Sequence record: MN850622.1
Length of the DNA stretch: 64,000 nucleotides
Reading direction: 5' to 3' (one strand)
DNA from: Escherichia phage mobillu
Positions 11,142 to 55,608 of this stretch are shown in pieces (the first letter of the stretch is position 1; the number at the start of each line of letters is the position of its first letter). Under the pieces are notes generated by a model. The model ran no database searches. It saw nothing but the letters and a program-made list of their open reading frames with translations, and was not told the DNA's origin. A program made the position numbers and the translations under genes.

Positions 11142-12137
11142 ATGAGCATTACATCTGATGCGGTAAAACATGAAATTAACGGTTTATGTGCTTCACAGAT
11201 TAAAGTGTGGTTTAAAGACCATAACGATCGCAGAGCACTTAATTATGAACAAATTGCTATCCAAGTTCATCAATTACTGGTTAGTAAATTTGATTTTCAT
11301 ATGCCGTCTGAAATCTATACTAATCTGCCGCGAGCACTTATTAAAGCGTGTAAAGGTTATGGAAAATCAATGGCTGATGGAATCTTCAGCGCGCTGAATA
11401 AACTTAACGTTCTGTCGATGATTAACTCTAACAACATCCTGCGTAATCTAGGACGTACTGATTTGTTCGGCCGTGAACAGTGTAAAATGCCTTTGAAATG
11501 GATTGTTGCTCATCTTAACGAGAACCAAACACGTTTTATGGCCGTAACAGCACGCTTACAAATGGGCCTAGATCGTCAGATGAACTTTAAAACTCATCCA
11601 CGTTATTCAGGTTCAACTGACTTTTATAAATGTGAGCTTCAAAAGGTCGGTGGCAAAACCGTCTTAGTAGTTCGTGTAACGTTTGAAGGACGACGTCAAG
11701 GATATTTTGACATAATCGGCTCTGGACTTAAACATTGTGGATTTATCGACGAAGTTGATATCAAGCGAGACGGCGTTGGATACCGTATTGGGTATGTTTG
11801 TACTCTTAAAGAAGAGATTTCAGGACCAGCTCCAGGACTAAAAGACGTTAGATATAAAGACGAGCTCGTTGAAGAAATAAAAGAAGTTGAATATGATATC
11901 AACCAAGAAGATGCTCTTAAAGACCTTATTGATGAACTGAACCAAGACGTTATTCCGGTTCAGAAATTTGAATCAAAACATGCTGAGCAAATCAAATACT
12001 TTGAAGCTTTGATTAACGAACTTAATGTAACTATTCAACAGACTGACGATGAAATCTCACGATTAGCAGGCTTAAACGGTAAAAATAAAACAGAACGAGC
12101 TAATCTTATTCAAGTAGTAAAACTTCTTAAGGAATGA
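11142..12137 (+). CDS. hypothetical protein with C-terminal coiled coil
   Basis: ORF 331 aa; C-terminal heptad-rich segment. Confidence 0.6.
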   Translation: MSITSDAVKHEINGLCASQIKVWFKDHNDRRALNYEQIAIQVHQLLVSKFDFHMPSEIYTNLPRALIKACKGYGKSMADGIFSALNKLNVLSMINSNNILRNLGRTDLFGREQCKMPLKWIVAHLNENQTRFMAVTARLQMGLDRQMNFKTHPRYSGSTDFYKCELQKVGGKTVLVVRVTFEGRRQGYFDIIGSGLKHCGFIDEVDIKRDGVGYRIGYVCTLKEEISGPAPGLKDVRYKDELVEEIKEVEYDINQEDALKDLIDELNQDVIPVQKFESKHAEQIKYFEALINELNVTIQQTDDEISRLAGLNGKNKTERANLIQVVKLLKE

Positions 12138-12166
12138 TGTACAACCAAGGATGGTTGGAGTATAAT
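12137..12166 (+). promoter_or_regulatory. early promoter cassette
   Basis: ATGTAC-AACCAAGGATGGTTGGAG-TATAAT. Confidence 0.5.
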
Positions 12167-12192
12167 AAATTTTTCAACATGAGGAATATAAA

Positions 12193-13152
12193 ATGGCTTT
12201 TATTACACGTAGAGAACTTATCAAAGAATTTACCTCGAACGCATATACTCCAGGACCTAATCCTATCCGTATGCCTGTAAAGACTCCTGAAGAGATTGAG
12301 GAAATCTGTTCATATTATGGGATTACTTCTCGTAAGTTTACTCAATTTGAATGCGTTACTAACACACCCGTTAAAGAGTTCATTAAAAATGGCGAGTTCA
12401 GCCGTTTATTGGCCAAACAGAAACTTCGTAATTTTTGTATTGGCGGTGAAGGACAATATTTCGCTAAGCAGTTCCGGAATAACCTTAACAATCTGATGGC
12501 CATTGCTTCTCGTATTCGTCCTCAAGCAATTAACATGAAACATTTGAAATATACTTACGATAAGTTGGAAATCATGGTTATCAGTGAGAACGAGTTCACT
12601 CTCACGTATAAACCTAAGAATGATAACGTTGCTCGTGTATTCCACCAAGCGTTGGAAGTGTTAGGTGATAATATTCACCAGATTAAAGCAATTTATTCTC
12701 GTGAGCTTAATATTATCAACCCTATCAAGAATAAGGGCCATATCGCTATCCAGGCTCGTGTATCTATTGGTAAAAAGGTTCCTGCGCCATGGTGGCACAA
12801 AGACTCCGAATATTATCAAAATCTTAAAAAGGAAAATGCATTGTTTGAAGCATCGCTTACTGGGACCCCAATTGAACAGGCCGAAGTCCTAAGTGCTTAT
12901 TCTACTTCGGGTAAATCAATGTTTAAAGGTTTGCCAAATGTGTGCAAACTGTCTGCAGTAAAACTAAATGTTTCTAATGACCTTCTTCCGGTCGAAGATT
13001 ACCATTACAATCAAATCAAGGCCACTATGGACCAACTGTCTGTTGAACTTGACAAAGCACAAGCTAAGCTTCGTGATGCTCAAAGTGTTGTAACGAATCT
13101 CCAGTTGCAGTATTCTAAACTTTTTAACGCAATGAATGCGTTAAAATCATAA
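12193..13152 (+). CDS. hypothetical protein with C-terminal coiled coil
   Basis: ORF 319 aa; C-terminal heptad-rich segment. Confidence 0.6.
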   Translation: MAFITRRELIKEFTSNAYTPGPNPIRMPVKTPEEIEEICSYYGITSRKFTQFECVTNTPVKEFIKNGEFSRLLAKQKLRNFCIGGEGQYFAKQFRNNLNNLMAIASRIRPQAINMKHLKYTYDKLEIMVISENEFTLTYKPKNDNVARVFHQALEVLGDNIHQIKAIYSRELNIINPIKNKGHIAIQARVSIGKKVPAPWWHKDSEYYQNLKKENALFEASLTGTPIEQAEVLSAYSTSGKSMFKGLPNVCKLSAVKLNVSNDLLPVEDYHYNQIKATMDQLSVELDKAQAKLRDAQSVVTNLQLQYSKLFNAMNALKS

Positions 13153-13156
13153 ATCA

Positions 13157-13186
13157 GTTTACAACCAAGGATGGTTGGAGTATAAT
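13157..13186 (+). promoter_or_regulatory. early promoter cassette
   Basis: GTTTAC-AACCAAGGATGGTTGGAG-TATAAT, identical 30-mer also at 55021. Confidence 0.55.
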
Positions 13187-13214
13187 GAATTTATCTTAAC
13201 GAGAGGAAAATATT

Positions 13215-14165
13215 ATGACACGTTCACATTACATTGAATACTTTGCAGGTCTTATCGCTAACGTTCATGCCCAACGTGCTTCTGGTGTACTAGGATTTGA
13301 TGTTCCACACCGAGATGTAGTAAGTGGTATTCTTCGAGATTTTGGTACATACGTAGGCCAAGAAAATCATATCTGTAAAGATACTCAAAATGCATATTCT
13401 CATTCATTAGGGACACTGCTTCAATGGTTCAAACGTTCTCGTTTATTATCTTCTACTGTAGCTCGCGATAACATTAAAAACTTTATGAAGCCGAGCTTTA
13501 TTAAATCTGTGACATCTAAAACCGATTTGGTTGAATTCACTATTGTTAATGATGTTAAAAAGACTCATTTGGCTGATTGGTTAACTACCATTCCTGAAAC
13601 TAAATTTGCCGATAAATTTGCTTGTGAATTCAATAACCAAGTGAATATGCTTTTTAAACATTCTCGTAAATTATTCACAGGCGGCGATTCTCGTACAAAT
13701 ACAGTTCATGCTAAAGATTGGGTTACTGCAGTGTTCAAACCAACCGGTAATGGTACCGCATCATTATCAATTGATATTCAGGTTCCTTATTATCACTCAC
13801 GTAATCTCGGCACCATGAAAGCTGAAGAAATTAAGAAGCACAATAAAACCATTCGTTCGCTGTCTTATAAACTTCGCATGATGTTAAGAATCATGGACGT
13901 GGTAGAAATGTATGATGAAACCGAAGATAATGGTTCAATGTTATACAGTTCTCGCATTCAAATTAAGTTGAAGAACCCTAACGAGTATAAGCCTAAGCCT
14001 ATTAAAGAGCCTAAAGCAGAAAAAGTTGATAACTTAAGAGAAGAACGCGAATATCTCAAATCTCGTCTGAAAGAAGTCGAAGCCCAGATTGCAGAACAAA
14101 CTAAATCGTTAAAAGCTCTGAATGCGAAAGCGGATGGTTTACGAAATGCCATTGAGGTGTTATAA
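13215..14165 (+). CDS. hypothetical protein with C-terminal coiled coil
   Basis: ORF 316 aa; C-terminal heptad-rich segment. Confidence 0.6.
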   Translation: MTRSHYIEYFAGLIANVHAQRASGVLGFDVPHRDVVSGILRDFGTYVGQENHICKDTQNAYSHSLGTLLQWFKRSRLLSSTVARDNIKNFMKPSFIKSVTSKTDLVEFTIVNDVKKTHLADWLTTIPETKFADKFACEFNNQVNMLFKHSRKLFTGGDSRTNTVHAKDWVTAVFKPTGNGTASLSIDIQVPYYHSRNLGTMKAEEIKKHNKTIRSLSYKLRMMLRIMDVVEMYDETEDNGSMLYSSRIQIKLKNPNEYKPKPIKEPKAEKVDNLREEREYLKSRLKEVEAQIAEQTKSLKALNAKADGLRNAIEVL

Positions 14166-14470
14166 TGAAACTACGTCTTTTAGAGGATATTGATATGAGC
14201 ACTAATCATGGCTTGGTTAAGTTTATTGACGATAGTTCAAAGATTGAATTTGTTCAGCGAGATAAAATCCACGGTGAAGAAGAGTTTGTTCCTCCGGCAT
14301 GGAACGAAATAATGAAAATGGTTGAACGACGTGAAAATGCTGCCAAATCGGCAGCAAAACATCCATGCCCGGAATGTGGAACTATCCAAGTCCAACTGGT
14401 TAACTGGACAACTGATAACTTGAAATTGAAATGCCGTAAATGCTTCCACAAATTTGAGAGAACATTATAA
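14165..14470 (+). CDS. hypothetical zinc-ribbon protein
   Basis: C-terminal CPEC-x17-CRKC; TAATG coupling. Confidence 0.5.
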   Translation: MKLRLLEDIDMSTNHGLVKFIDDSSKIEFVQRDKIHGEEEFVPPAWNEIMKMVERRENAAKSAAKHPCPECGTIQVQLVNWTTDNLKLKCRKCFHKFERTL

Positions 14471-14883
14471 TGAGATATAGCCTTCATTGTTTTATCGCAG
14501 CTTTAGTTTTTGCCATCATTCCATTCATTTGGAACAGCCAGAATACTTACATGGAAACTAAAGTAATTCCTGTGGAGGTAGTGGAATTAATCTCAGGTCA
14601 ATCTACAGGAAAATATTCTAAATTAGAATTTATTGCCGTCTATAAAGATGAGCAAGGACGAGTTTTTGACAGGCGTGTATCGCCATCGTTTTATACGCTT
14701 CTGAATAAAGGTGATACGATAGCTATAGAAATTCGTGAGATGGATATCAAACAAACTACTAAAGATAACTTGATTTGGTTCTTTGGTATGGTGTTGTTGG
14801 TTTCTATCTGTATCACAGGTTTTATTACATGTATTGTATTTGGCGTTGCATATTTAATCGATGAAAGGAAAAATAATGTTTAA
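14470..14883 (+). CDS. hypothetical membrane protein
   Basis: N- and C-terminal hydrophobic helices. Confidence 0.55.
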   Translation: MRYSLHCFIAALVFAIIPFIWNSQNTYMETKVIPVEVVELISGQSTGKYSKLEFIAVYKDEQGRVFDRRVSPSFYTLLNKGDTIAIEIREMDIKQTTKDNLIWFFGMVLLVSICITGFITCIVFGVAYLIDERKNNV

Positions 14884-15139
14884 AGTGTACGGGTATGACT
14901 CTACTATTCATAAATGCATTTATTGTGATAATGCGAAACGATTGCTGACTGTTAAGAAACAGCCATTCGAATTCATTAATGTTATGCCAGAAAAAGGTGT
15001 TTTTGATGATGAGAAAATTGCTGAGCTTCTGGTTAAGCTTGGACGTGAATCACAAGTCGGATTGACTATGCCTCAAGTGTTTGCTCCTGACGGAAGTCAC
15101 ATTGGTGGATTTGATCAACTGCGAGAATATTTTAAATGA
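14876..15139 (+). CDS. nrdC: thioredoxin (NrdC)
   Basis: 87 aa from ATG 14876; MFKVYGYDSTIHKCIYCDNAKRLL...GGFDQLREYFK matches T4 NrdC as I recall it (CxYC active site). Confidence 0.9.
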   Translation: MFKVYGYDSTIHKCIYCDNAKRLLTVKKQPFEFINVMPEKGVFDDEKIAELLVKLGRESQVGLTMPQVFAPDGSHIGGFDQLREYFK

Positions 15140-15351
15140 TGCTTGAAGGAACTGATTATATCCATGACTACCGTGGAAACGCGGTATATGTAGGTGATGA
15201 AGTTGCAGTTTACTATGGGTATGGAACTTTGATGACAGCCAAGGTTATTCAAATTAAAAATAATCGTGCTAAACTCGAAGTTTATTATTCTAATGGCGAA
15301 AAGTCTATTTCTAAATGGAAATACGGCGATTGCATGGTCAAACTGGGGTAA
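15136..15351 (+). CDS. hypothetical protein
   Basis: ORF 71 aa, ATGA overlap. Confidence 0.5.
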   Translation: MMLEGTDYIHDYRGNAVYVGDEVAVYYGYGTLMTAKVIQIKNNRAKLEVYYSNGEKSISKWKYGDCMVKLG

Positions 15352-15353
15352 AT

Positions 15354-15524
15354 ATGATTTACGATATTAGTGCAGCAAGAGCTCCATCAATGGTTACTAT
15401 TCCTGTTGAAGAATTAGATCGTCTTCAGAAAATTGAAGAGCTTCTTTGGGAAATTGAATCAGCTTTGCCGTCCGGACTAGAATCCTGGATTGATTATGAA
15501 GAGCTCAATAAACTCCGGGGTTAA
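15354..15524 (+). CDS. hypothetical small protein
   Basis: ORF 15315..15524, start placed at ATG 15354 after GGGG. Confidence 0.4.
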   Translation: MIYDISAARAPSMVTIPVEELDRLQKIEELLWEIESALPSGLESWIDYEELNKLRG

Positions 15525-15573
15525 ACCATGGTATTCGGCTCGATGGGAAACTGTCGAGCCAGACGTCGAAACA

Positions 15574-15603
15574 GTTTACAACGACGAAGAAACGTGTTAT
15601 GAT
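15574..15603 (+). promoter_or_regulatory. candidate early promoter
   Basis: GTTTAC 15574-15579 and TG-TTATGAT 18 nt downstream; preceded by hairpin GGCTCGA/TCGAGCC 15537-15560. Confidence 0.35.
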
Positions 15604-15652
15604 GAACCTACAGTAAACGATATGATTGATTTGGAAATGGGAAGAGATTATT

Positions 15653-15823
15653 ATGCAAGTTAAATTGTTATACCGTTTATTAAAAAGTGGCGAACACGAT
15701 TGGTATGTGTTGATTAAAACTGAACCAAATTTTTTCTCCGGACGACCATTTACGGTTCGACCAACTAAACGTCAGCTTCGCAAAGCGAAACGCACGCATC
15801 GCAACTTTTATAGAGGATATTGA
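15653..15823 (+). CDS. hypothetical basic small protein
   Basis: ORF 15626..15823, start placed at ATG 15653 after GGAAGAG. Confidence 0.4.
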   Translation: MQVKLLYRLLKSGEHDWYVLIKTEPNFFSGRPFTVRPTKRQLRKAKRTHRNFYRGY

Positions 15824-15824
15824 T

Positions 15825-16250: not shown

Positions 16251-16255
16251 TAAAT

Positions 16256-16284
16256 ACCCTTATCTATTTAAGGTAAGGGTTTAT
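16256..16284 (+). terminator. hairpin / weak terminator upstream of gene 49
   Basis: ACCCTTA-loop-TAAGGGT followed by TTAT. Confidence 0.4.
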
Positions 16285-16285
16285 C

Positions 16286-16759: not shown

Positions 16760-18573
16760 CAATTGAAAAAGAAATTGAAGGATTGATTCATAAAACTAAT
16801 AAAGACCTTTTAAACGAGAATGCTAATAAAGATTCTCGTGTTTTTCCAACTCAACGGGACCTTATGGCCGGTATTGTGTCTAAACACATTGCCAAAAATA
16901 TGGTCCCGTCTTTTATTATGAAAGCGCATGAAAGCGGAATTATTCATTTCCACGATATTGATTATTCCCCTGCTCTTCCATTTACTAATTGCTGTTTAGT
17001 AGATTTAAAAGGAATGCTTGAAAACGGATTTAAGCTAGGTAATGCACAGATTGAAACTCCTAAATCAATTGGCGTTGCTACTGCAATTATGGCACAAATT
17101 ACTGCACAAGTTGCTTCCCATCAATACGGCGGAACGACTTTTGCTAATGTAGATAAAGTACTTTCTTCTTATGTTAAACGCACCTATGCAAAACATATTG
17201 AGGATGCAGAAAAATGGCAAATCGCTGATGCGTTGAATTATGCTCAATCTAAAACAGAAAAAGACGTATACGATGCATTCCAAGCTTATGAATATGAAGT
17301 AAATACTCTCTTTAGTTCAAACGGACAAACTCCTTTTGTAACAATTACATTTGGTACGGGAACTGACTGGACTGAACGAATGATTCAGAAAGCAATTCTG
17401 AAAAATCGTATTAAAGGTCTTGGTCGTGATGGAATAACTCCTATTTTCCCTAAGCTTGTTATGTTCGTTGAAGAAGGCGTTAATCTTTATAAAGACGATC
17501 CGAACTATGATATTAAGCAGCTTGCTCTAGAGTGTGCAAGCAAAAGAATGTATCCTGACATTATTTCGGTTAAGAATAATAAAGCTATTACCGGTTCTTC
17601 AGTTCCTGTTTCTCCAATGGGTTGCCGTAGTTTCTTGAGCGTATGGAAAGATTCAACCGGTAATGAAATTCTTGATGGTCGCAATAATCTTGGTGTTGTA
17701 ACATTGAATCTTCCTCGTATCGCGTTAGATTCTTATATTGGAACACAGTTCAATGAACAGAAATTTGTTGAGCTATTTAATGAACGAATGGATCTGTGTT
17801 TTGAAGCCTTGATGTGTAGAATTAGTTCCTTAAAAGGAGTTAAAGCAACTGTTGCTCCTATTCTTTACCAAGAAGGTGCATTAGGGGTTCGTCTTAAACC
17901 TGATGACGATATAATTGAGTTATTTAAAAACGGTAGAAGTTCAGTGTCTTTGGGATACATTGGTATTCACGAATTGAATATTCTTGTCGGTCGTGATATT
18001 GGGCAAGAAATTTTAACTAAAATGAATGCTCATCTTAAACAGTGGACTGAAAGAACCGGATTTGCTTTTAGTTTATATTCGACTCCTGCTGAAAACCTTT
18101 GTTATCGCTTCTGTAAACTTGATACAGAAAAATATGGAAGTGTAAAGGATGTCACTGATAAAGGCTGGTACACTAATAGTTTCCATGTTTCAGTAGAAGA
18201 AAATATTACTCCGTTTGAAAAGATTTCTCGTGAAGCGCCATATCATTTCATTGCGACAGGTGGTCACATTTCTTATGTTGAACTTCCTGATATGAAAAAT
18301 AACTTAAAGGGTCTTGAGGCCGTGTGGGATTATGCTGCACAACATTTAGATTATTTTGGTGTTAATATGCCAGTGGATAAATGTTTTACATGCGGAAGTA
18401 CTCATGAAATGACTCCCACTGAAAACGGATTTGTTTGTTCAGTTTGTGGAGAAAGTGATCCTAAAAAGATGAACACCATAAGAAGAACATGCGGTTATTT
18501 GGGAAATCCGAACGAACGAGGATTTAATCTCGGTAAAAATAAAGAAATCATGCATAGGGTTAAACACCAATGA
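16756..18573 (+). CDS. nrdD: anaerobic ribonucleoside-triphosphate reductase
   Basis: 605 aa; C-terminal zinc site C..C..C..C and glycyl-radical motif RRTCGYLG; uninterrupted reading frame. Confidence 0.95.
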   Translation: MTIEKEIEGLIHKTNKDLLNENANKDSRVFPTQRDLMAGIVSKHIAKNMVPSFIMKAHESGIIHFHDIDYSPALPFTNCCLVDLKGMLENGFKLGNAQIETPKSIGVATAIMAQITAQVASHQYGGTTFANVDKVLSSYVKRTYAKHIEDAEKWQIADALNYAQSKTEKDVYDAFQAYEYEVNTLFSSNGQTPFVTITFGTGTDWTERMIQKAILKNRIKGLGRDGITPIFPKLVMFVEEGVNLYKDDPNYDIKQLALECASKRMYPDIISVKNNKAITGSSVPVSPMGCRSFLSVWKDSTGNEILDGRNNLGVVTLNLPRIALDSYIGTQFNEQKFVELFNERMDLCFEALMCRISSLKGVKATVAPILYQEGALGVRLKPDDDIIELFKNGRSSVSLGYIGIHELNILVGRDIGQEILTKMNAHLKQWTERTGFAFSLYSTPAENLCYRFCKLDTEKYGSVKDVTDKGWYTNSFHVSVEENITPFEKISREAPYHFIATGGHISYVELPDMKNNLKGLEAVWDYAAQHLDYFGVNMPVDKCFTCGSTHEMTPTENGFVCSVCGESDPKKMNTIRRTCGYLGNPNERGFNLGKNKEIMHRVKHQ

Positions 18574-27203: not shown

Positions 27204-27257
27204 ACGCTTTAACACGATGTGGTTATAATGACCACATCAAATTAAATGGAGAACAAC

Positions 27258-27446
27258 ATGGAGTATTCAACTGGCCAACATCTTCTCGTTGTCCCTGAAA
27301 TTAAAAAATATGTTTTGACCAATACGTTTTCAGGTGAAGAACATATTGTTACTGAACAAATGCTCAAATCTGCTTTTAAAGATGAGTATAATAAAATAAT
27401 GTCTAATCGCAATTCCGCATGGACAGTTACCGACTTCTACGAATAA
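27258..27446 (+). CDS. hypothetical small protein (45.2 position)
   Basis: ORF 27246..27446, start placed at ATG 27258 after GGAGAA. Confidence 0.5.
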   Translation: MEYSTGQHLLVVPEIKKYVLTNTFSGEEHIVTEQMLKSAFKDEYNKIMSNRNSAWTVTDFYE

Positions 27447-30659: not shown

Positions 30660-33371
30660 ATGAAAGAATTTTACTTAACGGTTGAACAGATTGGTGATTC
30701 AATTTTTGAACGTTACATCGATTCTAATGGCCGTGAACGTACTCGCGAAGTAGAATATAAACCATCACTGTTTGCTCATTGTCCAGAAAGTCAGGCTACG
30801 AAATATTTCGATATCTACGGTAAGCCGTGTACTCGTAAATTGTTCGCTAATATGCGTGATGCCTCCCAATGGATTAAACGCATGGAAGATATCGGACTTG
30901 AAGCACTTGGCATGGACGATTTCAAATTGGCGTATTTGTCTGACACTTATAACTATGAAATCAAATACGACCATACAAAAATTCGTGTGGCTAACTTCGA
31001 CATCGAAGTAACATCTCCGGACGGGTTCCCTGAGCCGTCACAAGCAAAACATCCGATTGATGCTATCACCCATTATGACTCAATTGACGACAGGTTCTAC
31101 GTATTTGATCTATTGAATTCTCCATATGGTAATGTGGAAGAATGGTCTATCGAAATTGCGGCTAAGCTTCAAGAACAAGGCGGTGATGAAGTTCCATCCG
31201 AAATTATCGATAAAATCATTTATATGCCGTTTGATAATGAAAAAGAATTATTGATGGAATATCTCAACTTCTGGCAACAGAAAACTCCTGTCATTTTGAC
31301 TGGATGGAACGTTGAGTCATTTGATATTCCATATGTGTATAACCGAATCAAGAATATTTTTGGCGAATCTACTGCGAAACGTTTATCGCCACATCGTAAA
31401 ACTCGTGTTAAAGTTATCGAAAACATGTATGGTTCTCGTGAAATCATTACATTGTTCGGTATCTCTGTTCTTGATTACATTGACCTTTACAAAAAATTCT
31501 CTTTTACCAATCAACCGTCGTATTCTCTGGATTACATTTCAGAATTTGAATTGAACGTTGGTAAACTGAAATATGACGGCCCTATTTCTAAGCTTCGTGA
31601 AAGCAATCACCAACGATATATTTCTTATAACATTATCGACGTGTATCGTGTATTGCAAATTGATTCTAAGCGTCAGTTCATCAACTTGAGCTTGGACATG
31701 GGTTATTATGCTAAAATTCAGATTCAATCTGTGTTTAGCCCAATTAAAACATGGGATGCTATTATTTTTAATAGCCTTAAAGAGCAGAACAAGGTGATTC
31801 CACAAGGTCGTTCTCACCCGGTTCAACCTTATCCTGGCGCTTTTGTTAAGGAACCTATTCCAAATCGATACAAATATGTAATGAGTTTCGACCTTACATC
31901 TCTGTATCCAAGTATTATTCGCCAAGTGAATATTAGCCCTGAAACAATAGCAGGAACGTTTAAAGTAGCTCCACTGCATGATTATATTAACGCAATCGCT
32001 GAACGTCCTTCAGATGTGTACAGTTGTTCTCCTAACGGCATGATGTATTATAAAGACCGTGATGGTGTAGTTCCAACTGAAATCACTAAGGTCTTTAATC
32101 AACGTAAAGAACATAAAGGTTATATGCTTGCAGCTCAACGTAATGGTGAAATAATTAAAGAGGCATTGCATAATCCTAATCTTTCTGTTGACGAACCATT
32201 AGATGTTGATTATCGTTTTGACTTCACTGACGAGATTAAAGAAAAGATTAAAAAGTTGTCTGCTAAATCTCTTAATGAAATGTTGTTTAGAGCTCAACGT
32301 ACTGAAGTTGCAGGTATGACTGCACAAATTAACCGTAAATTGCTTATCAACTCACTTTATGGTGCACTTGGCAACGTTTGGTTCCGTTATTATGATTTGC
32401 GTAATGCTACTGCAATCACAACATTCGGGCAAATGGCTTTACAGTGGATTGAACGTAAAGTTAATGAATATCTGAATGAAGTTTGTGGTACAGAAGGTGA
32501 AGCTTTCGTTCTTTATGGTGATACAGACTCTATTTACGTATCTGCTGATAAAATTATCGATAAGGTTGGTGAATCTAAATTCCGCGATACTAACCATTGG
32601 GTAGACTTCTTAGATAAGTTTGCACGTGAACGTATGGAACCAGCTATTGATAGAGGTTTCCGTGAAATGTGTGAATACATGAACAATAAACAACACTTAA
32701 TGTTCATGGACCGAGAAGCTATCGCTGGTCCTCCGCTCGGTTCTAAAGGTATTGGTGGATTCTGGACTGGCAAGAAACGTTATGCATTAAACGTGTGGGA
32801 TATGGAAGGCACTCGTTACGCCGAGCCTAAACTCAAAATCATGGGTCTAGAGACTCAGAAATCTTCGACCCCTAAAGCAGTACAGAAAGCTCTTAAAGAA
32901 TGTATTCGTCGTATGCTTCAAGAAGGTGAAGAATCATTACAAGAATATTTTAAAGAGTTTGAAAAAGAATTCCGTCAATTGAATTATATTAGCATCGCGT
33001 CGGTATCTTCTGCGAATAACATTGCTAAATATGACGTAGGTGGATTCCCGGGTCCTAAATGCCCGTTCCATATTCGTGGAATTCTGACGTATAACCGAGC
33101 TATCAAAGGTAATATTGATGCACCACAAGTTGTAGAAGGTGAAAAAGTATATGTTCTGCCTTTACGTGAAGGAAACCCATTCGGTGATAAATGTATCGCA
33201 TGGCCTTCTGGTACTGAAATCACAGATTTAATTAAAGACGATGTACTTCATTGGATGGACTACACTGTTCTCCTTGAGAAGACATTTATTAAACCGCTTG
33301 AAGGATTCACATCAGCAGCTAAACTCGATTACGAGAAGAAAGCATCTCTGTTCGATATGTTTGATTTTTGA
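30660..33371 (+). CDS. 43: DNA polymerase (family B) gp43
   Basis: 903 aa; exonuclease motif FDIEV, polymerase motifs DxxSLYPS, KxxxNSLYG, YGDTDS; N-terminus matches the RB69-type polymerase as I recall it. Confidence 0.97.
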   Translation: MKEFYLTVEQIGDSIFERYIDSNGRERTREVEYKPSLFAHCPESQATKYFDIYGKPCTRKLFANMRDASQWIKRMEDIGLEALGMDDFKLAYLSDTYNYEIKYDHTKIRVANFDIEVTSPDGFPEPSQAKHPIDAITHYDSIDDRFYVFDLLNSPYGNVEEWSIEIAAKLQEQGGDEVPSEIIDKIIYMPFDNEKELLMEYLNFWQQKTPVILTGWNVESFDIPYVYNRIKNIFGESTAKRLSPHRKTRVKVIENMYGSREIITLFGISVLDYIDLYKKFSFTNQPSYSLDYISEFELNVGKLKYDGPISKLRESNHQRYISYNIIDVYRVLQIDSKRQFINLSLDMGYYAKIQIQSVFSPIKTWDAIIFNSLKEQNKVIPQGRSHPVQPYPGAFVKEPIPNRYKYVMSFDLTSLYPSIIRQVNISPETIAGTFKVAPLHDYINAIAERPSDVYSCSPNGMMYYKDRDGVVPTEITKVFNQRKEHKGYMLAAQRNGEIIKEALHNPNLSVDEPLDVDYRFDFTDEIKEKIKKLSAKSLNEMLFRAQRTEVAGMTAQINRKLLINSLYGALGNVWFRYYDLRNATAITTFGQMALQWIERKVNEYLNEVCGTEGEAFVLYGDTDSIYVSADKIIDKVGESKFRDTNHWVDFLDKFARERMEPAIDRGFREMCEYMNNKQHLMFMDREAIAGPPLGSKGIGGFWTGKKRYALNVWDMEGTRYAEPKLKIMGLETQKSSTPKAVQKALKECIRRMLQEGEESLQEYFKEFEKEFRQLNYISIASVSSANNIAKYDVGGFPGPKCPFHIRGILTYNRAIKGNIDAPQVVEGEKVYVLPLREGNPFGDKCIAWPSGTEITDLIKDDVLHWMDYTVLLEKTFIKPLEGFTSAAKLDYEKKASLFDMFDF

Positions 33372-33411
33372 TATAATGCCAAGGACGGCCAACTAATTAA
33401 ATGAGAGAAAT

Positions 33412-34047
33412 ATGAAAACTACACCAATCACTATCGCTATTGACGCAATCGTAAAACAAGCTTCATCTCTTGCCACTATGGCTAAAGTAATTAGTCAAAA
33501 CCCTGCTCGGTATAATGCTATTCTTGAAACTCTTCGTCGCCCTGGACTGAGTAATTATGAAAGTCGTGTAATTATTACAGGTGTTGGTAAGAACGCTAAT
33601 ATCGCAACTAAAGCTTCCGAGACTTTTGCTTCACTAGGTATTCCTAGCATGTATTTGAACACTGGGCATTATTCTCATGGTGACGCAGGATTTATTGCAC
33701 CTAATGATGTATTAGTTCACATCAGCCGTTCTGGTAAGACTGAAGAAATGATAGGTGTTGCTAAACATCTTCGTATGATTCGTCCTCAGGTTAAACAGAT
33801 TCTGTTACATTGTAACCCTGACATTCCACAAGAATACGAAGCCCTTTTTGATTACTCTTTCTGTACAGGCATCGCGGTAGAGGTTGATGAGAATTCTCTG
33901 GCTCCGACCATGTCCACTACATTGTTGTTAGCGCTTATCGATACGTTTGCTATCAACCTTTCGTCTGAACGTGGATTTACCTCTAATGATTTCCTTAAGT
34001 TCCATCCAGGCGGTGCACTAGGTGCCATGTTACGAGGCGAACAATGA
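33412..34047 (+). CDS. SIS-domain sugar-phosphate isomerase (GmhA/KdsD-like)
   Basis: 211 aa; SIS signature VIITGVGKNANIA...HISRSGKTEE; single-domain size similar to phosphoheptose isomerase. Confidence 0.75.
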   Translation: MKTTPITIAIDAIVKQASSLATMAKVISQNPARYNAILETLRRPGLSNYESRVIITGVGKNANIATKASETFASLGIPSMYLNTGHYSHGDAGFIAPNDVLVHISRSGKTEEMIGVAKHLRMIRPQVKQILLHCNPDIPQEYEALFDYSFCTGIAVEVDENSLAPTMSTTLLLALIDTFAINLSSERGFTSNDFLKFHPGGALGAMLRGEQ

Positions 34048-43482: not shown

Positions 43483-43531
43483 GTTTACTTCTCCAGTAGT
43501 TGTGTTATTATAGATCTATCAACTACTGGAG
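43483..43531 (+). promoter_or_regulatory. T4-type early promoter (PeSL-like)
   Basis: GTTTAC 43483-43488, TG-TTATTATAGA; 12-bp inverted repeat CTCCAGTAGTTG/CAACTACTGGAG. Confidence 0.55.
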
Positions 43532-43537
43532 AACAAA

Positions 43538-43855
43538 ATGAAAACCATCGATTGTAAAGCAGAATTTAAGATTTTTTATCACGGTTCAAGTAGTTCAGCT
43601 AACATCGAAAACATGCTTTGTCCTCCTGAAGAAACAGGAGTTCTGTCTGAAACTGGACGTAAGAAAAACTTGGATCGTGTATTCTTTACTGAAGATATCG
43701 GTTTAGCAAAGATTTATGCAGGACGAGCAGCACGCTCTTATGGAGGTGAACCACGTCTCTATCGAGTAATTTCTCCGGTAGATGTAGTTCAAATGAATGA
43801 TACTAAAGGCGCTACAGTTTATCACGCTGAATGGGCATTTTGCGAGGAAATATGA
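43538..43855 (+). CDS. hypothetical protein
   Basis: ORF 105 aa immediately upstream of and coupled to dmd. Confidence 0.55.
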   Translation: MKTIDCKAEFKIFYHGSSSSANIENMLCPPEETGVLSETGRKKNLDRVFFTEDIGLAKIYAGRAARSYGGEPRLYRVISPVDVVQMNDTKGATVYHAEWAFCEEI

Positions 43856-44793: not shown

Positions 44794-44830
44794 GTTTACA
44801 TTATAGATGGACTATAGTATAGTAGTCCTA
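44794..44830 (+). promoter_or_regulatory. T4-type early promoter (PeSL-like)
   Basis: GTTTAC 44794-44799; inverted repeat GGACTA/TAGTCC. Confidence 0.5.
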
Positions 44831-44852
44831 TCAAATCAACTAAGGAGTTAAA

Positions 44853-45146
44853 ATGAAAAAGTTATCATTGGCAGCAATCTTACTTGCAGTATCATGTGCA
44901 CCGGCTCCAGTTACGGCAGGTTATGATAAAGACCTCTGTGAGTGGTCAATGACTGCAAATCAAGAAGATGTTGAACAACAAATCTTCTCTGATATCATGA
45001 ACATCACTAAACGAGACCGTCCTAATATGGTTAATAAAGTTGTTGAACAACTTAAGTCTGGCGGTATCATGCAGTACAACTATGTTTTGTATTGTGACCC
45101 TAATTTCGATAACAAAGATATCGTAACCGAAATCACAGGTGAATAA
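44853..45146 (+). CDS. sp: Spackle-like periplasmic protein (tentative)
   Basis: 97 aa with signal peptide; AGYDKDLCEWSMTA...YNYVLYCD resembles T4 Sp as I recall it. Confidence 0.5.
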   Translation: MKKLSLAAILLAVSCAPAPVTAGYDKDLCEWSMTANQEDVEQQIFSDIMNITKRDRPNMVNKVVEQLKSGGIMQYNYVLYCDPNFDNKDIVTEITGE

Positions 45147-50159: not shown

Positions 50160-50160
50160 T

Positions 50161-50501: not shown

Positions 50502-50535
50502 TTTACATTCCCTCCTCTCGTGTTATGATAGGCTT
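50501..50535 (+). promoter_or_regulatory. candidate early promoter
   Basis: GTTTAC 50501-50506, TG-TTATGATAGG. Confidence 0.45.
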
Positions 50536-50556
50536 ATCTTTAAATGGAGGTCTATC

Positions 50557-51138: not shown

Positions 51139-51196
51139 TGTACAAACTCTTCCAATGATGATACTATTACCTTTATCAACCACAGGAGAAACCTAA

Positions 51197-51805
51197 ATGT
51201 TTATGCCGTATAACGAGTGTGAAATTGAAGAAATTGTTCGTCGTGCTCAAAACCCCGAATATCAAGATGTATTGCAGTACGAAATTGATAGTCAATTCAG
51301 CGACATTGAACAAAGTGTACTGTGGCAGTGTATGGAAAACAAGCCAGACTGTATTCAACAGGAGTTAAGTTCAATCGTTCGTAGAAATTGGACGTCTTCT
51401 GTTCCTGAGACAATGTATCGTGGAATCTCTAAGAAAACTATGGCCGCACTCGATGATAAAGGCATTGGTAGTATTATTAAATTTGACAGAGTAATGAGCT
51501 TCAGCCCAGTGTTCGGTGTAGCACGTAACTTTGCTTCGTATAATTTTTACGGAACATTTAATATGTTCTGCATCAAAGATGCACCATTTGCTTTCAACTT
51601 CCGTGAACATATGCTTAACATGATTCTGGCTGCGCCATCTTGTGAGTTCAATGGAGCTTTCCCTGAAGCGACAAGACGGTCTAATGCTAGACTTATATCC
51701 GACGAATGTGAATTTATGCTCCCTATAGGGACTACACTGCGTGTAGATTCTATTATTCAAGATGGACGTTATACAATCTGGAATCTGTCTATTGTCAGTT
51801 ACTGA
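51197..51805 (+). CDS. modA: ADP-ribosyltransferase (ModA-like)
   Basis: 202 aa; MYRG, MSFSP, DECEFML triad elements. Confidence 0.65.
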   Translation: MFMPYNECEIEEIVRRAQNPEYQDVLQYEIDSQFSDIEQSVLWQCMENKPDCIQQELSSIVRRNWTSSVPETMYRGISKKTMAALDDKGIGSIIKFDRVMSFSPVFGVARNFASYNFYGTFNMFCIKDAPFAFNFREHMLNMILAAPSCEFNGAFPEATRRSNARLISDECEFMLPIGTTLRVDSIIQDGRYTIWNLSIVSY

Positions 51806-51957
51806 CTGAATTGGAATAACCGGATGGAACTCAGAACCATTATAACACATAAAAAATTAAAGCATTTTACGAAAAAAGAGTGTACACTACCTGAGGGCAT
51901 GATATTATAAGCTTATCAGCTAAATGACTTAACGTCCGTAAGACAGAGGAAAATATT

Positions 51958-52704
51958 ATGTTATCAAATAATAAAATTAACAAAATCAATCGTCGTCTTG
52001 ACCACACCAGAGCTTCTGCGAAGAGACGCTCTAAGGATTTTAACTTAGACTTTAATTACCTTAAAAACATTCTTGATCAAAAGGTCTGCGCTTACTCAGG
52101 TGAATCTTTCAATAACTCTGTTGAAGGTGAGAAATTATCCTTAGAACGTTTTAATAACGATATCGGCTACATTAAAGGTAATGTTATCCCGGTTAAGAAA
52201 AAATATAACACGGCTCGTTCTGATTTAACATTAGAAGAACTTATTGAGAAACGTGACGCTGTTGCAAGACGTATCGCTAATCCTTCTGCCCGTAAAGTAG
52301 AGAAACTTAATCTCGACGAGAAGAAATGGGCCCAAATTAAAAAGGTTTATGATACTATTTTAAAAATCCGAGCAAAACGTGAAAATCGTGTTAAGCATAT
52401 GGCGAACATGATGAAAAATCAACCTTTATCTAACGAATCTAAACTTAGAATTGTTGCTTTGAAAGCACGCATTAATGGCTCACATCAAGCAGAAGGCCAT
52501 GAACTTACTAAACTCAACGTTCTTCTTAAAGGCTCTGACTGGAAAACTAAAACTAAATTAACTGACGCTGAATCGCTTTTCGATACATATGATAAAGTTA
52601 TCCAAGGTCTGCAACGCTTTGAAAAGATTGGTTTCATTGGTAAATTAAAATTGAAACGTGGCTTACCACTTAGCGCATCATTATTCCAACTGATTAAAGG
52701 TTAA
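51958..52704 (+). CDS. hypothetical basic protein (srd position)
   Basis: 248 aa; position corresponds to T4 srd between modA and dda. Confidence 0.5.
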   Translation: MLSNNKINKINRRLDHTRASAKRRSKDFNLDFNYLKNILDQKVCAYSGESFNNSVEGEKLSLERFNNDIGYIKGNVIPVKKKYNTARSDLTLEELIEKRDAVARRIANPSARKVEKLNLDEKKWAQIKKVYDTILKIRAKRENRVKHMANMMKNQPLSNESKLRIVALKARINGSHQAEGHELTKLNVLLKGSDWKTKTKLTDAESLFDTYDKVIQGLQRFEKIGFIGKLKLKRGLPLSASLFQLIKG

Positions 52705-52706
52705 TT

Positions 52707-53018
52707 ATGGTTTATGTATATGCAATAGTTTATCGAGATATGGAAGGATTTACCGTCCCGGTTCCACTTGATGAGCATCGTCCTGCAGTATTTTTTAGAA
52801 AGGATATTGCAGATAAAGTTTTCGATACTTTGAAAACACAGTATAAAACAGATTTAAAAATGGGAGTTCTAAGAATGGTCGAAACTCCGCGTAAGTTCTG
52901 GTTTAATAAGCTTGAAATGAAACACGTTAAACTAGATGCGGAGACGCAAAGATTGTATCAACGAATCCTGGACACAGGCCGTATTGTTAGTATTCCAATT
53001 GCAGGGACTTTACGATGA
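52707..53018 (+). CDS. hypothetical protein (dda.1 position)
   Basis: ORF 103 aa. Confidence 0.5.
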   Translation: MVYVYAIVYRDMEGFTVPVPLDEHRPAVFFRKDIADKVFDTLKTQYKTDLKMGVLRMVETPRKFWFNKLEMKHVKLDAETQRLYQRILDTGRIVSIPIAGTLR

Positions 53019-54328
53019 CATTTGATGATTTGACTGAAGGCCAGAAAAACGCCTTCAACGTTGTTATGGAAGCTATTAAAGAAAAGAAACATCACGTAAC
53101 TATTAATGGGCCTGCTGGTACAGGTAAAACAACCCTTACTAGATTTATTGTTGAAGCTCTTATTTCTTCAGGAGAATCAGGTATTATTTTAGCAGCCCCT
53201 ACACATGCTGCTAAAAAGGTTCTAAGCAAACTTGCGGGTCAAGAAGCATCGACTATTCATAGCATTCTTAAAATCAACCCAACTACATACGAAGAAAACG
53301 TATTGTTTGAACAGAAAAAGGTTCCCGACTTAGCCTTGTGCCGTGTACTGTTATTTGATGAAGCGTCAATGTGTGACCGTTCTCTGTTTAAAATAATGTT
53401 AGCTAGTATCCCTAAATGGTGTACAGTAATTGGAATTGGTGACCGATGCCAGATTCGTCCAGTAGACCCAGGTGAATCAACTGCGTATCTAAGTCCTTTC
53501 TTCACTCACAAAGACTTTGTGCAATGCAACCTTACAGAAGTTAAACGTAGCAATGCACCAATTATTGATGTTGCGACTGATATTCGTAATGGCAAATGGA
53601 TTTACGATAAAGTAGTTGATGGACACGGTGTTCATGGATATACAGACCTTAAATCGTATATGATGAACTATTTTAACGTTGTTAAAACTCCTGAAGACCT
53701 TTTCGAAAATCGAATGATGGCATTCACAAATAAGTCGGTGGACAAGTTAAATTCAATTATTCGCCGAAAACTTCTTGAAACAGAAAAACCATTTATTAAA
53801 GACGAAGTCATTGTTCTACAAGAGCCATTTACTAAGACATATAAGCTAGATGGTAAAAATATGACCGAAATGCTTTTCAATAACGGGCAATTCGTTCGTA
53901 TTCGAGATGCTGTAGAAACGTCTACATTCGTTAAAGCACGTGGTGTTTCAGGCGAATATATGATACGATACTGGAATCTTACAGTAGAAACATATGGGGA
54001 TGATGAAGAATACATCCGCGAAGATATAAAGGTTATTTCTTCTGAAGAAGAGCTTTATAAATTCAATTTGTTTTTGGCTAAGACCGCAGAAACATACAAA
54101 TTTTGGAATAAAGGTGGTAAAGCCCCATGGAGCGAATTCTGGGATGCTAAACGCATGTTCACTAAGGTGAAGGCACTACCTGTATCAACCTTCCATAAGG
54201 CCCAGGGTATATCTGTTGACACGGCCTTTGTTTATACACCGTGTATCCATTATGCCGATTCAGAATTAGCCAAACAATTACTATATGTCGGCACGACTCG
54301 TGGTCGTTTTGACGTCCATTTTATTTGA
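53015..54328 (+). CDS. dda: SF1 DNA helicase Dda
   Basis: 437 aa; Walker A GPAGTGKTT, Walker B LLFDEASM; N-terminus MTFDDLTEGQKNAFN matches T4 Dda as I recall it. Confidence 0.9.
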   Translation: MTFDDLTEGQKNAFNVVMEAIKEKKHHVTINGPAGTGKTTLTRFIVEALISSGESGIILAAPTHAAKKVLSKLAGQEASTIHSILKINPTTYEENVLFEQKKVPDLALCRVLLFDEASMCDRSLFKIMLASIPKWCTVIGIGDRCQIRPVDPGESTAYLSPFFTHKDFVQCNLTEVKRSNAPIIDVATDIRNGKWIYDKVVDGHGVHGYTDLKSYMMNYFNVVKTPEDLFENRMMAFTNKSVDKLNSIIRRKLLETEKPFIKDEVIVLQEPFTKTYKLDGKNMTEMLFNNGQFVRIRDAVETSTFVKARGVSGEYMIRYWNLTVETYGDDEEYIREDIKVISSEEELYKFNLFLAKTAETYKFWNKGGKAPWSEFWDAKRMFTKVKALPVSTFHKAQGISVDTAFVYTPCIHYADSELAKQLLYVGTTRGRFDVHFI

Positions 54329-54337
54329 GAGAAAATT

Positions 54338-55015
54338 ATGAGCACTGATGTTATTATAGATTTTGAAACATTCGGCAATACATCAAAAGCGGCTGTTATT
54401 GACCTTGCGGTTATTGCATATAATTCCGACCCTGAAGTTGTTGAATCATTTGAAGAACTTGTTCAACGAGGTAAGCGAATTAAATTTAATTTAGCTTCTC
54501 AGAAAGGGAAGCGAGTTTTCGCTAAATCCACTATGAAATGGTGGAAAGAGCAATCGGCTGAAGCACGTAAAAACTTGGCCCCGTCTGAAGACGATGTCAC
54601 TACGCTTGAAGGCATTAAAATCTTTTTAGATTATTGTCGAGCTAATAAAGTTGACCAATGGAAATCACAGATGTGGTGCCGTGGTATGAGCTTTGACTTC
54701 CCGATCTTGGTCGATTTGATTCGTGACCTCTATCGTGATGAAGGTGTTCTTGAACCAGATATTGATACTGATAAATTAGAACCGGTTAAATTCTGGGCTC
54801 AACGTGATATTCGTACGGCAATCGAAGCTTACTCGTTGACACGAGGATTAAGTATGTGTCCATTACCGATGGGTACGCTAAAAGGATTCGTTGCCCATGA
54901 TAGTATTCATGATTGTGCTAAAGATATTTTGATGTTAAAATATGCTCAGCGTTATGCGCTTGGCCTTGAAGATGTCCCTGAGAATCCTGACCCATTAAGT
55001 GTAAAACAGCGATAA
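54338..55015 (+). CDS. dexA: exonuclease A (DEDD family)
   Basis: 225 aa; N-terminal IIDFETFG (DEDD motif I); synteny downstream of dda. Confidence 0.75.
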   Translation: MSTDVIIDFETFGNTSKAAVIDLAVIAYNSDPEVVESFEELVQRGKRIKFNLASQKGKRVFAKSTMKWWKEQSAEARKNLAPSEDDVTTLEGIKIFLDYCRANKVDQWKSQMWCRGMSFDFPILVDLIRDLYRDEGVLEPDIDTDKLEPVKFWAQRDIRTAIEAYSLTRGLSMCPLPMGTLKGFVAHDSIHDCAKDILMLKYAQRYALGLEDVPENPDPLSVKQR

Positions 55016-55020
55016 AACCG

Positions 55021-55050
55021 GTTTACAACCAAGGATGGTTGGAGTATAAT
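55021..55050 (+). promoter_or_regulatory. early promoter cassette
   Basis: GTTTAC-AACCAAGGATGGTTGGAG-TATAAT, identical to 13157-13186. Confidence 0.55.
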
Positions 55051-55081
55051 CTTTCTATCTTAACCAAACAGGAAAAACATT

Positions 55082-55576
55082 ATGAATATCAATACTACGG
55101 CTACTTACATCCTGAAAGACGAAAAACAAATCAACTGGTACGGTGCTTCAGTGCGAGCTTATGAAAAGTTTTGTGAAATTTTAGGTGCCACTCAAGGTAA
55201 TAGTTTCACTATTGTTAACTTCATCAAACAAGCTGAAGGCCCTTGGTTATTCTTAGAAATTAAAAATTCATACGGTACAATTTCTACTGCCGCCCTTCCA
55301 AGCACCGACTTTGAACTGTTGATTGAAGAAGTAGAACCTGTTAAAGACATCTGTATTGATATGGATATCGCTTGTATGTACGGTACTCTGATTAAGCCTA
55401 TTGAGCCTACTGATTTGTTGTGTAAATATGTTTCAATTCGACGACCGTTCGCTGGTCCAGTAAATGGCTGGGTGTCTGACCAGTGGATTGAAGAAGGTGT
55501 TGAACTTCTGAACGTTGTTCATGCAGGTGATTTTAGTGTAGTTCCACGTAGTGCTGTGGTTAATATCCTTAATTAA
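55082..55576 (+). CDS. hypothetical protein, paralog family member A
   Basis: 164 aa; C-terminal GWVSDQWIEEGVELLNVVHAGDFSVV shared with next two ORFs. Confidence 0.6.
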   Translation: MNINTTATYILKDEKQINWYGASVRAYEKFCEILGATQGNSFTIVNFIKQAEGPWLFLEIKNSYGTISTAALPSTDFELLIEEVEPVKDICIDMDIACMYGTLIKPIEPTDLLCKYVSIRRPFAGPVNGWVSDQWIEEGVELLNVVHAGDFSVVPRSAVVNILN

Positions 55577-55578
55577 TG

Positions 55579-55608
55579 TTGTACATCCAAGGATGGATGG
55601 AGTATAGT
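55579..55608 (+). promoter_or_regulatory. early promoter cassette variant
   Basis: TTGTAC-ATCCAAGGATGGATGGAG-TATAGT. Confidence 0.5.

Follow-up and report, generated by a model that had tools for sequence, protein, structure and literature searches.

In a 64,000-nt window of Escherichia phage mobillu (MN850622.1; the window is the whole stretch analysed), which is the early region of a T-even coliphage resembling RB69 (Mosigvirus), with the early genes on the + strand, a 30-mer, GTTTACAACCAAGGATGGTTGGAGTATAAT, is repeated in distant intergenic gaps. The 30-mer is a sigma-70 promoter (-35 TTTACA or TGTACA, 17-bp spacer, -10 TATAAT or TATAGT; GTTTACA-N17-TATAAT), and its recurring core, CCAAGGAYGG, is the apex of a stem-loop in the promoter spacer. 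It belongs almost certainly to one sub-family of the promoter-early stem-loop (PeSL) cassettes of T4-type phages. The hairpin covaries, its apex CANGGANG is invariant, and this apex matches the binding consensus of the host regulator CsrA; we tentatively propose that CsrA acts on the hairpin in read-through early transcripts. Scattered near-identical promoter/stem-loop cassettes in the variable early regions of T4-type phages, which are thought to shuffle genes, are already known. A CsrA-type hairpin apex with a sense-RNA signature in one cassette sub-family appears to be new as far as our literature searches reached.

Promoter cassettes and their distribution

The window is 97–99% identical to the Mosigvirus coliphages vB_Eco_mar005P1, JK45, and RB69, and RB69, a 97–98% identical relative, served as whole-genome reference. 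Gene names in the window were assigned by comparison with the RB69 and T4 records. An earlier note on this DNA had reported an identical 30-mer at two distant loci, and the exact copies are indeed at 13157–13186 and 55021–55050, where identity reaches patchily to about 50 nt (88%). The close variants that it named differ by two mismatches (12137–12166) and five mismatches (55579–55608), so that "close" is generous but fair for the second; two of the five mismatches compensate each other in the hairpin stem, where A:T has become T:A. Shuffled windows contained no match to the 30-mer. BLAST located it at three to four places per Mosigvirus genome, and the four cassette copies in the window are thus the whole set. 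The core CCAAGGAYGG was found six times in the window, always on the + strand (11089, 12145, 13165, 33379, 55029, and 55587), against 0.08 expected occurrences and no more than one in any of 100 shuffles. The two additional cores of the earlier note are present, but at 11089 and 33379, one to two bases from the given 11090 and 33381. About 92% of the window is coding, and all cores (6/6) are in intergenic gaps, none in coding DNA. The whole RB69 genome likewise has six cores, every one intergenic and on the early-gene strand. A similar frequency inside coding regions, which the earlier note had set against its own proposal as a sign of chance, is therefore not what the counts show.

The earlier description of the repeat as a promoter cassette also holds, as -35, 17-bp spacer, and -10 are followed by a Shine-Dalgarno (SD) sequence and ATG. 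In the nrdC region, one early cassette (12138–12166, + strand; -35 TGTACA at 12138–12143, -10 TATAAT at 12161–12166) separates nrdC.6 (ATG 11142, stop 12135–12137) from nrdC.5 (ATG 12193, stop 13150–13152), and the next (13157–13186, +; -35 TTTACA at 13158–13163, -10 at 13181–13186) separates nrdC.5 from nrdC.3 (ATG 13215). The third (55021–55050, +; -35 at 55022–55027, -10 at 55045–55050) lies between dexA (54338, stop 55013–55015) and motB.1 (ATG 55082, stop 55574–55576), and a diverged fourth (55579–55608, +; -35 TGTACA at 55580–55585, -10 TATAGT at 55603–55608) between motB.1 and motB (ATG 55639). Matches to the sigma-70 consensus amount to 11/12 at 13158 and 55022, 10/12 at 12138, and 9/12 at 55580, all with 17-bp spacers. 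The cassette promoters start 1–8 nt and the hairpins 4–10 nt past the upstream stop, and the SD and ATG of the next gene follow 29–49 nt beyond the loop GGA. Like T4 early promoters (PMC2988021), the cassettes have a GTTTAC(A/T) -35, a 17-bp spacer, a TAnnAT -10, and the extra "uber"-promoter positions. T4 early promoters mostly have an extended -10 (TGn), whereas promoter scans did not find it in the window cassettes, in which GAG precedes the -10; T4-type copies of the cassette (TGTGGTATAAT) do have it. The + strand of the window holds about 25 early promoters of the same build with SD and ATG, and most window early promoters carry CTATCAAC just past the -10, probably the start region.

The two other cores are associated with different promoter remnants or types. 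Between nrdC.8 (10552, stop 11077–11079) and nrdC.6, the core at 11089 sits in a MotA-box middle promoter (11082–11106, +; GCTTTA at 11082–11087, 13-nt spacer, TATAAT at 11101–11106), with C in place of T before GCTTTA and a hairpin, ACCC-AAGGAC-GGGT (11087–11100, +), within the spacer. The consensus MotA box, (a/t)(a/t)(a/t)TGCTTtA, is centred at -30, 11–13 bp upstream of a sigma-70 -10. The corresponding T4 sequence downstream of nrdC.8, GCTTTA-N12-TATAAT, ends 7 nt before 53325, the published start site of T4 PnrdC.7 (PMC2988021 Table 1), and by position and sequence the 11089 site is the ortholog of this mapped promoter. MotA/AsiA, named in the earlier note, is relevant to this copy and not to the others. 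The core at 33379 follows gene 43 (30660–33371, stop 33369–33371) in an element (33372–33389, +) composed of TATAAT (33372–33377) and the hairpin GCC-AAGGAC-GGC (33378–33389), for which no convincing -35 or MotA box was found. The next gene encodes an arabinose-5-phosphate-isomerase-like protein (ATG 33412), and we interpret this copy as a half-cassette bordering on the RB69-specific sugar-modification genes. At the same site RB69 has GUC-AUGGAC-GGU, in which pairing is kept via two G·U pairs. RB69 140880–140925 (- strand, nrdA|nrdB) shows TATAAT, an ANGGAN hairpin, and an SD in an arrangement like that of window 33360–33415. The two regions look homologous, sharing TATAAT, the ANGGAN hairpin, and (c)aa(c)taa.taa.tgaga.aaatat.ATG; at nrdA|nrdB a MotA-box-like GCTTTA is located 11 nt upstream of TATAAT, which would place the hairpin across the start of a middle transcript.

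PeSLs consist of a strong sigma-70 promoter, a stem-loop in one of five positional subclasses (one of them between -35 and -10), an SD, and an ATG; they recur across the hyperplastic regions of T4-type genomes and have been implicated in modular shuffling (PMC2839356). The idea has since been carried over to the T4/PST pair, with the promoter TTTACW-N17-TAYWAT, and also to versions that have a MotA box (PMC4122927). The window cassettes resemble PeSLs and PmSLs (Arbiol et al. 2010, Comeau et al. 2014) in having an early promoter directly past the upstream stop, a spacer stem-loop, and an SD with ATG, in their genome-wide repetition in hyperplastic early regions with ties to insertions, deletions, and swaps, and in the MotA-box version as at 11089. 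The genomic setting agrees as well: the nrdC.x and motB regions vary in gene content and order among T4, RB14, RB69, and IME08. The stem-loop itself differs. Those published for PeSLs are either terminators rich in G/C (RB49/phi1) or stems of the form "AGNA-loop-TCNT" (PST/T4), whereas in the window sub-family the stem is short and weak, a U-tract is lacking, and the apex is a strictly conserved CANGGANG, which is unmentioned in those papers, whose analyses did not include RB69-type phages.

A covarying hairpin with an invariant apex

The spacer reads CAACC-AAGGAU-GGUUG in three copies and CAUCC-AAGGAU-GGAUG in the copy at 55584, a compensatory change. On the + strand the hairpins are at 12142–12157 (CAACC-AAGGAT-GGTTG, then GAG; present in the minimum-energy fold), 13162–13177 (hexaloop AAGGAU at 13167–13172; -6.9 kcal/mol and z -2.3 for the 30-mer), 55026–55041, and 55584–55599 (CATCC-AAGGAT-GGATG). 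The 5–6 bp spacer stem is part of the minimum-energy fold of three of the four intergenic RNAs and of the 30-mer. JS98-like phages have the same hairpin as window 55579. We compared 18 distinct hairpin copies, which derive from the window, RB69, T4, the Mosigvirus metagenome contig L009, the metagenomic variant L087, and Serratia phage Muldoon. Stem cells are paired in 92% of cases, compared with 60% in shuffles and at most 53% in slid-partner controls, a pairing figure that is partly due to ascertainment because some of the copies came from a stem-requiring scan, for which the enrichment and strand tests given below partly correct. Double changes affect four of the five stem pairs, and the inner variable pairs 6-17 and 7-16 are never unpaired while adopting four to five pair types each. 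By our reading of the 18-copy alignment, the non-Watson-Crick stem cells are five G·U on the sense strand versus one A·C in the outermost column; sense-strand G·U pairs occur, for example, in RB69 after gene 43 (GUC/GGU versus GCC/GGC in the window), in T4 nrdC.4 versus rIIA.1, in L087, and at alt.-3. This combination of covariation and sense-strand G·U points toward a structure of the sense RNA and away from duplex DNA or antisense RNA.

Independent evidence for the hairpin lies in its enrichment. In the window, CANGGANG with a stem of at least 3 bp was found at 6/6 intergenic matches versus 2/14 coding ones. RB69 has 11 hairpins on the early strand (nine promoter-associated) versus two on the other strand (simulated mean 1.4, maximum 4), and T4 has four versus none. 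The hairpin also outlives the promoter, both after gene 43 and before nrdC.3 of T4 and RB14, where the hairpin is unchanged, the -35 is absent, and the -10 is drifting (TATAAAT, TATAAAC, CATAAAT). Its apex is kept across Tequatro-, Mosig-, Dhaka-, and Jiaodaviruses, with a UGGA variant in the Serratia phage. Taken together, the hairpin is very probably a selected structure of the sense RNA.

The earlier note had also offered the core as a binding site for a phage or host regulator. A regulator site is plausible, but it looks like one at the level of RNA that matches CsrA rather than a DNA operator. A DNA-binding protein on CCAAGGAYGG that tunes a subset of early promoters would account for a motif of fixed orientation relative to the promoter and for its position between -35 and -10, at which binding of a protein would obstruct RNA polymerase, and the mechanism of T4 early-promoter shut-off is said to be unknown (PMC2988021). 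It would not account for arms that covary with wobble on the sense strand only, an RNA signature, nor for motifs downstream of the -10 (33379; RB69 nrdA|nrdB) or without a promoter (T4 nrdC.3), and we regard an operator as very unlikely.

Several other structures were considered and discarded. An antisense-strand hairpin was suggested by an A·C at the loop-closing position, but this position is a loop N and the stem wobbles are sense-strand G·U. A long-range fold of AAGGAUGG with a downstream CUAUCUU is possible at 55021 only and is not conserved in other copies. A mini open reading frame (ORF) beginning at the loop ATG would have four codons and no SD spacing, and inspection showed that its ATG is lost in the C variants. 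A separate TTAA-AAGGAG-TTAA hairpin is located inside nrdD (16756) at 17830–17847 and is conserved in the T-evens examined (RB69, T4, RB14, and ACG-C40), which may simply mirror protein conservation.

Database searches contributed little beyond the T-even set. A metagenome scan with TACANNNNAGGANNNNTGGAGTATA returned mostly unrelated coding matches and an unrelated promoter-like repeat, with one useful variant (L087, with a G·U pair), and an IMG/VR scan with the same pattern gave 13 stretches, all already represented. Rfam gave no gathering-score match in the whole window and only chance-level hits (E up to 10) around the nrdC sites. A full-text literature search for the core sequence yielded primers and unrelated matches only. 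The promoter-like repeat, TACA(A/T)TTTAGGACG(G/A)ATGGAGTATA, is found on JGI "Ga" metagenome contigs unrelated to T-evens (L093, L101, L123, L125, L142, L150, L156, L163, L197, and others), often after GTGAAATG..AAA and sometimes twice per contig, and has no inverted repeat.

Six apex positions (C, A, G, G, A, G, as C-A-n-G-G-A-n-G) are invariant in 18/18 copies; variation at the apex is confined to the two N columns (A/U and U/C/A). Against the RsmE/CsrA structural consensus, (A/U)CANGGANG(U/A) (quoted in PMC6849547), all 18 copies match CANGGANG at 8/8 positions. The CsrA consensus from in vitro selection of ligands (SELEX), RUACARGGAUGU, has invariant ACA and GGA, short hairpins carry the GGA in their loop, and the selected ligands mostly have six-nt loops closed by AC/GU (PMC7652899); in Salmonella, cross-linking and immunoprecipitation located A/C-UGGA in apical loops (PMC5207318). 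T4 copies read ACAAGGAUGU and agree with 10/12 SELEX positions, including ACA, GGA, and GU, and RB69-type copies have CCA instead of the SELEX ACA. E. coli CsrB contains CAAGGAUG (GUC-AAGGAU-GAG, nt 283–290), and the CsrB hairpin ACACC-AGGAU-GGUGU is close to CACC-AAGGAU-GGUG of RB69. The first loop A is invariant even when its would-be partner changes, which fits a recognised rather than a paired base. The hairpin thus shares with CsrA/RsmE sites the GGA in an apical loop, the A-N-G-G-A-N hexaloop closed by C-G with free N positions, and the preference for U after GGA. In 9/14 sites the SD holds a further GGA at +29 to +39, a distance within the 10–63 nt bridging range of such sites. Known CsrA sites are in host 5' untranslated regions and small RNAs (CsrB repeats, glgC leader), whereas the putative site described here lies in a phage intergenic promoter spacer. 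Each intergenic region, furthermore, has a single site instead of an array, and the hairpin is excluded from locally initiated mRNA.

The GGA loop also recalls the sites of RegB, the phage endoribonuclease that cuts GGAG or GGAU in early intergenic RNA, with GGA unpaired and the fourth base constrained (PMC3014915). The loop reads GGAU in 12/18 copies, and the four cassette copies have GGAG directly 3' of the hairpin, followed by AU-rich sequence. The adjacent GGAG-UAUAAU, however, fits the A-rich 3' consensus (RAYARAA) only partly, is absent from the T4 copies, and is lost (GTAG) in phage ECCR664, where the hairpin is intact. In none of the 18 loops is the fourth base G; in six it is C or A, with C fixed at the PnrdC.7-like site in 7/7 Mosigviruses examined, and neither the invariant C nor the first loop A nor the closing G belongs to the RegB consensus (GGAGRAYARAA). 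Selection for RegB processing is accordingly an improbable explanation of the apex. We give still less credence to a ribosome stand-by site or decoy, in which the AAGGA loop would pair with the 16S anti-SD and recruit or stall 30S subunits on read-through RNA. The loop is SD-like (AAGGA) and lies 39–49 nt before the next start in most copies and 29–31 nt at two sites, but no start codon is at a usable distance, the first N may be U as well as A (AUGGA in four copies), which cuts anti-SD pairing to GGA, and the invariant closing C-G and first loop A would go unexplained; this explanation is highly improbable.

Within the otherwise fixed core, the Y position (12152, 13172, 55036, 55594, 11096, and 33386) flips between T and C independently per site across Mosigvirus and Dhakavirus genomes, while about 30 nt around it are fixed (loci L001, L009, L016, L070, L074, L215, and L217). 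Among single-mismatch 30-mer variants in the phage collection, 2/3 are a change at Y. We read Y as the putative free second N of the ANGGAN loop. The flips may alternatively reflect recurrent conversion between copies, or deamination of unpaired hydroxymethyl-C.

Possible cassette exchange and gene order

According to the earlier note, the sites precede exactly the duplicated gene sets, and the cassette may have been copied along with those duplications or have driven them. Neither statement is borne out. No pairwise similarity was detectable among the three nrdC genes next to cassettes (nrdC.6, nrdC.5, and nrdC.3; BLASTP E at least 0.25), which fall into three different PHROGs. The motB genes are related (44% identity between motB and the motB-like ORF at 56104; motB.1 shares a C-terminal segment), but this third paralog has no cassette. 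The two exact 30-mer copies precede the unrelated genes nrdC.3 and motB.1, and in RB69 the hairpin family is also found ahead of alc, alt.-3, nrdB, and an ORF near 72.5 kb. Gene duplication was therefore rejected as the source of the repeat, which is a property of the cassette. The view of the cassette as a repeated, recombination-prone module stands. Further along are motB.2 (56583) and rIIA (61739). The motB.2 gene, which has a different cassette of its own, precedes motB.1 in T4 and follows the motB genes in RB69. In the window motB.1 (55082–55576) is a single ORF of 164 codons, corresponding in the RB69 record (L001 4062–4558) to a 132-codon gene plus the 29-codon ORF012c; the split stems either from a frameshift between the two or from an old error in the RB69 sequence.

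Gene order and cassette type both vary among the T-evens. In T4 the order is nrdC.5, a cassette (TTTACT..CCACAAGGATGTGG TATAAT), nrdC.4, a hairpin element without -35 (AGCCAAGGATGGCT cGGAGTATAAAT), and nrdC.3. In RB69 and the window nrdC.4 is absent, and a single cassette with -35 and GGAGTATAAT separates nrdC.5 from nrdC.3. A difference of this kind would result from an exchange between two hairpin elements. IME08 (Dhakavirus) has the RB69-type cassette (stem CATCC) before nrdC.4, so that the same cassette is found before nrdC.3 (RB69), nrdC.4 (IME08), and motB.1. In T4 two near-identical cassettes precede nrdC.4 and, 48 kb away, rIIA.1, and KPV15-like Klebsiella phages carry this T4 nrdC.4/rIIA.1 cassette type near motB/cef. 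Orthologous genes of T4, RB69, and JS98-like phages carry different cassette types, as seen for T4 versus RB69 at alc and alt.-3, and these swaps would fit recombination at the level of the cassette. The RB69 nrdC.3 cassette differs from that of other Mosigviruses by three flanking changes, each toward the state of RB69 motB.1, giving 44 identical bases, which suggests conversion between copies 42 kb apart. The cassettes may thus serve as recombination joints, for which the pattern is suggestive, not proven. In the Tequatrovirus ACG-C40 (L008 4230–4640) a deletion reduced nrdC.5 to an N-terminal piece of 72 codons and nrdC.3 to its last ~46 codons; it removed nrdC.4 and both hairpin elements, and it ends within coding sequence, not at cassettes.

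Alternatively, the hairpin may be no more than an ordinary PeSL stem-loop, that is, an attenuator and/or a patch of homology for recombination whose loop was inherited without a factor-specific role. Stem-loops between -35 and -10 have been described as terminators or attenuators and as recombination sites (PMC2839356), the gene-order differences between T4, RB69, and IME08 fall at cassettes, and most copies within a genome have the same stem (3/4 in the window; both full promoter copies in T4), as copying or conversion would give. Against this, the hairpin has a stem of just 5–6 bp, about -7 kcal/mol, and no U-tract. A terminator scan predicted no intrinsic terminator on the + strand at the cassettes, where a T-run is missing, and a reading of the sites as intrinsic terminators was rejected for these reasons. 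Descent alone, moreover, does not predict that four of five stem pairs diverge while six loop and closing positions stay invariant in 18 copies, and hairpins persist at sites whose promoter has decayed. A purely inherited stem-loop is hence possible but rather unlikely.

Read-through transcripts and a proposed role of CsrA

In every copy the hairpin is located upstream of or across the expected local start, which for T4 PnrdC.7 follows from the mapped start, and locally initiated mRNA therefore lacks the hairpin, which only read-through RNA carries. The terminator scan predicted no terminator between the upstream promoters and the cassettes. We propose that the core works in RNA, on polycistronic read-through early transcripts, where the hairpin would display an A-N-G-G-A-N hexaloop closed by C-G, the high-affinity element of CsrA, and recruit the host protein. 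A CsrA dimer could possibly bridge the hairpin to a GGA-containing SD 29–39 nt downstream. Bound CsrA would repress the downstream gene, or otherwise mark it or alter its stability, on read-through RNA only. The near-identity of distant copies would result from common descent of a shuffled module, purifying selection at nearly every position, and probably occasional conversion. We infer that the hairpin RNA is made, that CsrA is bound in vivo, and that binding has an effect; the complete chain, including the action of CsrA on read-through hairpins, is a tentative proposal to which we assign somewhat less than even probability.

A number of observations weigh against it. The second GGA in the SD is present at only 9/14 sites and is lacking at 33379, 55579, T4 PnrdC.7, T4 nrdC.3, and RB69 nrdA|nrdB. 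With 4–10 sites, each genome is far below a CsrB-type sponge, and neither the window nor RB69 nor T4 is enriched in hairpins with the CsrB-type 7-mer CAGGAHG. At about -7 kcal/mol the hairpin is weak, and folds of whole intergenic regions are no better than those of shuffles; a DNA palindrome in a promoter spacer could in itself matter for RNA polymerase or recombination. ANGGAN hairpins are not enriched in 50 dexA loci of more distant T4-like phages (11 on the + and 8 on the - strand), which restricts the motif to a clade of close T-even relatives with enterobacterial hosts. Read-through across the cassettes is deduced only from the absence of predicted terminators. Literature searches gave no paper that links CsrA to T4 or T-even early RNA, and the link is one of motif resemblance. 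In a CRISPR interference screen, knock-down of csrA led to broad, probably pleiotropic, phage resistance (PMC7553319).

Control of read-through RNA by hairpins has precedents in T4 and in the window itself. The RNA hairpins of the T4 genes e, soc, 49, and I-TevI sequester the ribosome-binding site in read-through RNA, and an internal promoter yields open mRNA. The arrangement resembles the one proposed here in its two mRNA populations, split by whether the 5' arm or element is transcribed; it differs in that the GGA hairpin of the window is not paired with the SD, so that repression would need a trans-acting protein. Folds of the GGA-hairpin cassettes likewise showed no pairing of the spacer with the SD. 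A second near-identical cassette family, GTTTACTTCTCC(TC)..GTTGTGTTA, is present at 2224–2286, 5877–5935, 43484–43545, and 56529–56590. In read-through RNA of this family an anti-SD in the spacer pairs with the downstream SD (CAACTAGAGGAGAA), leaving -10 and start in the loop, and the stems have -21 to -24 kcal/mol (-21 to -25 with the T4 alc cassette; z -3.8 to -6). GGA-hairpin cassettes of RB69 are located at alc and alt.-3, where T4 has the anti-SD type. The two T4 cassettes at alc and alt.-3 (L211, 136275–136340 and 123032–123065, - strand; ..GTCCCTCGTGTTGTGTTATAGTAGTCTTACT.ACATAACATGAGGA..) are a near-identical pair 13 kb apart. A third cassette family (6326–6389, 27215–27264, 44795–44858, and 57108–57171) has a stem enclosing the -10 (for example, AGGACTAT..ATAGTCCT). 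The CsrA hairpin would be the trans-acting counterpart of the cis-acting anti-SD/SD stems in the sister cassettes.

If CsrA binds, the placement of promoters within hairpins would gain a rationale, namely to tell read-through RNA from locally initiated mRNA, and the 30-mer frozen at every position but one would be explained. The carbon and growth regulator of the host would then be tied to the expression of T-even accessory genes, an unrecognised post-transcriptional link between phage and host. It is conceivable, although we think it rather doubtful, that this applies generally, i.e., that T-even coliphages and their Klebsiella and Serratia relatives share mobile early and middle cassettes with a CsrA hairpin, through which host CsrA would set the translation or stability of accessory early genes (nrdC.x, motB, alc, alt.-3, nrdB, and rIIA.1) according to carbon and growth state, or through which the abundant early RNA would titrate CsrA.

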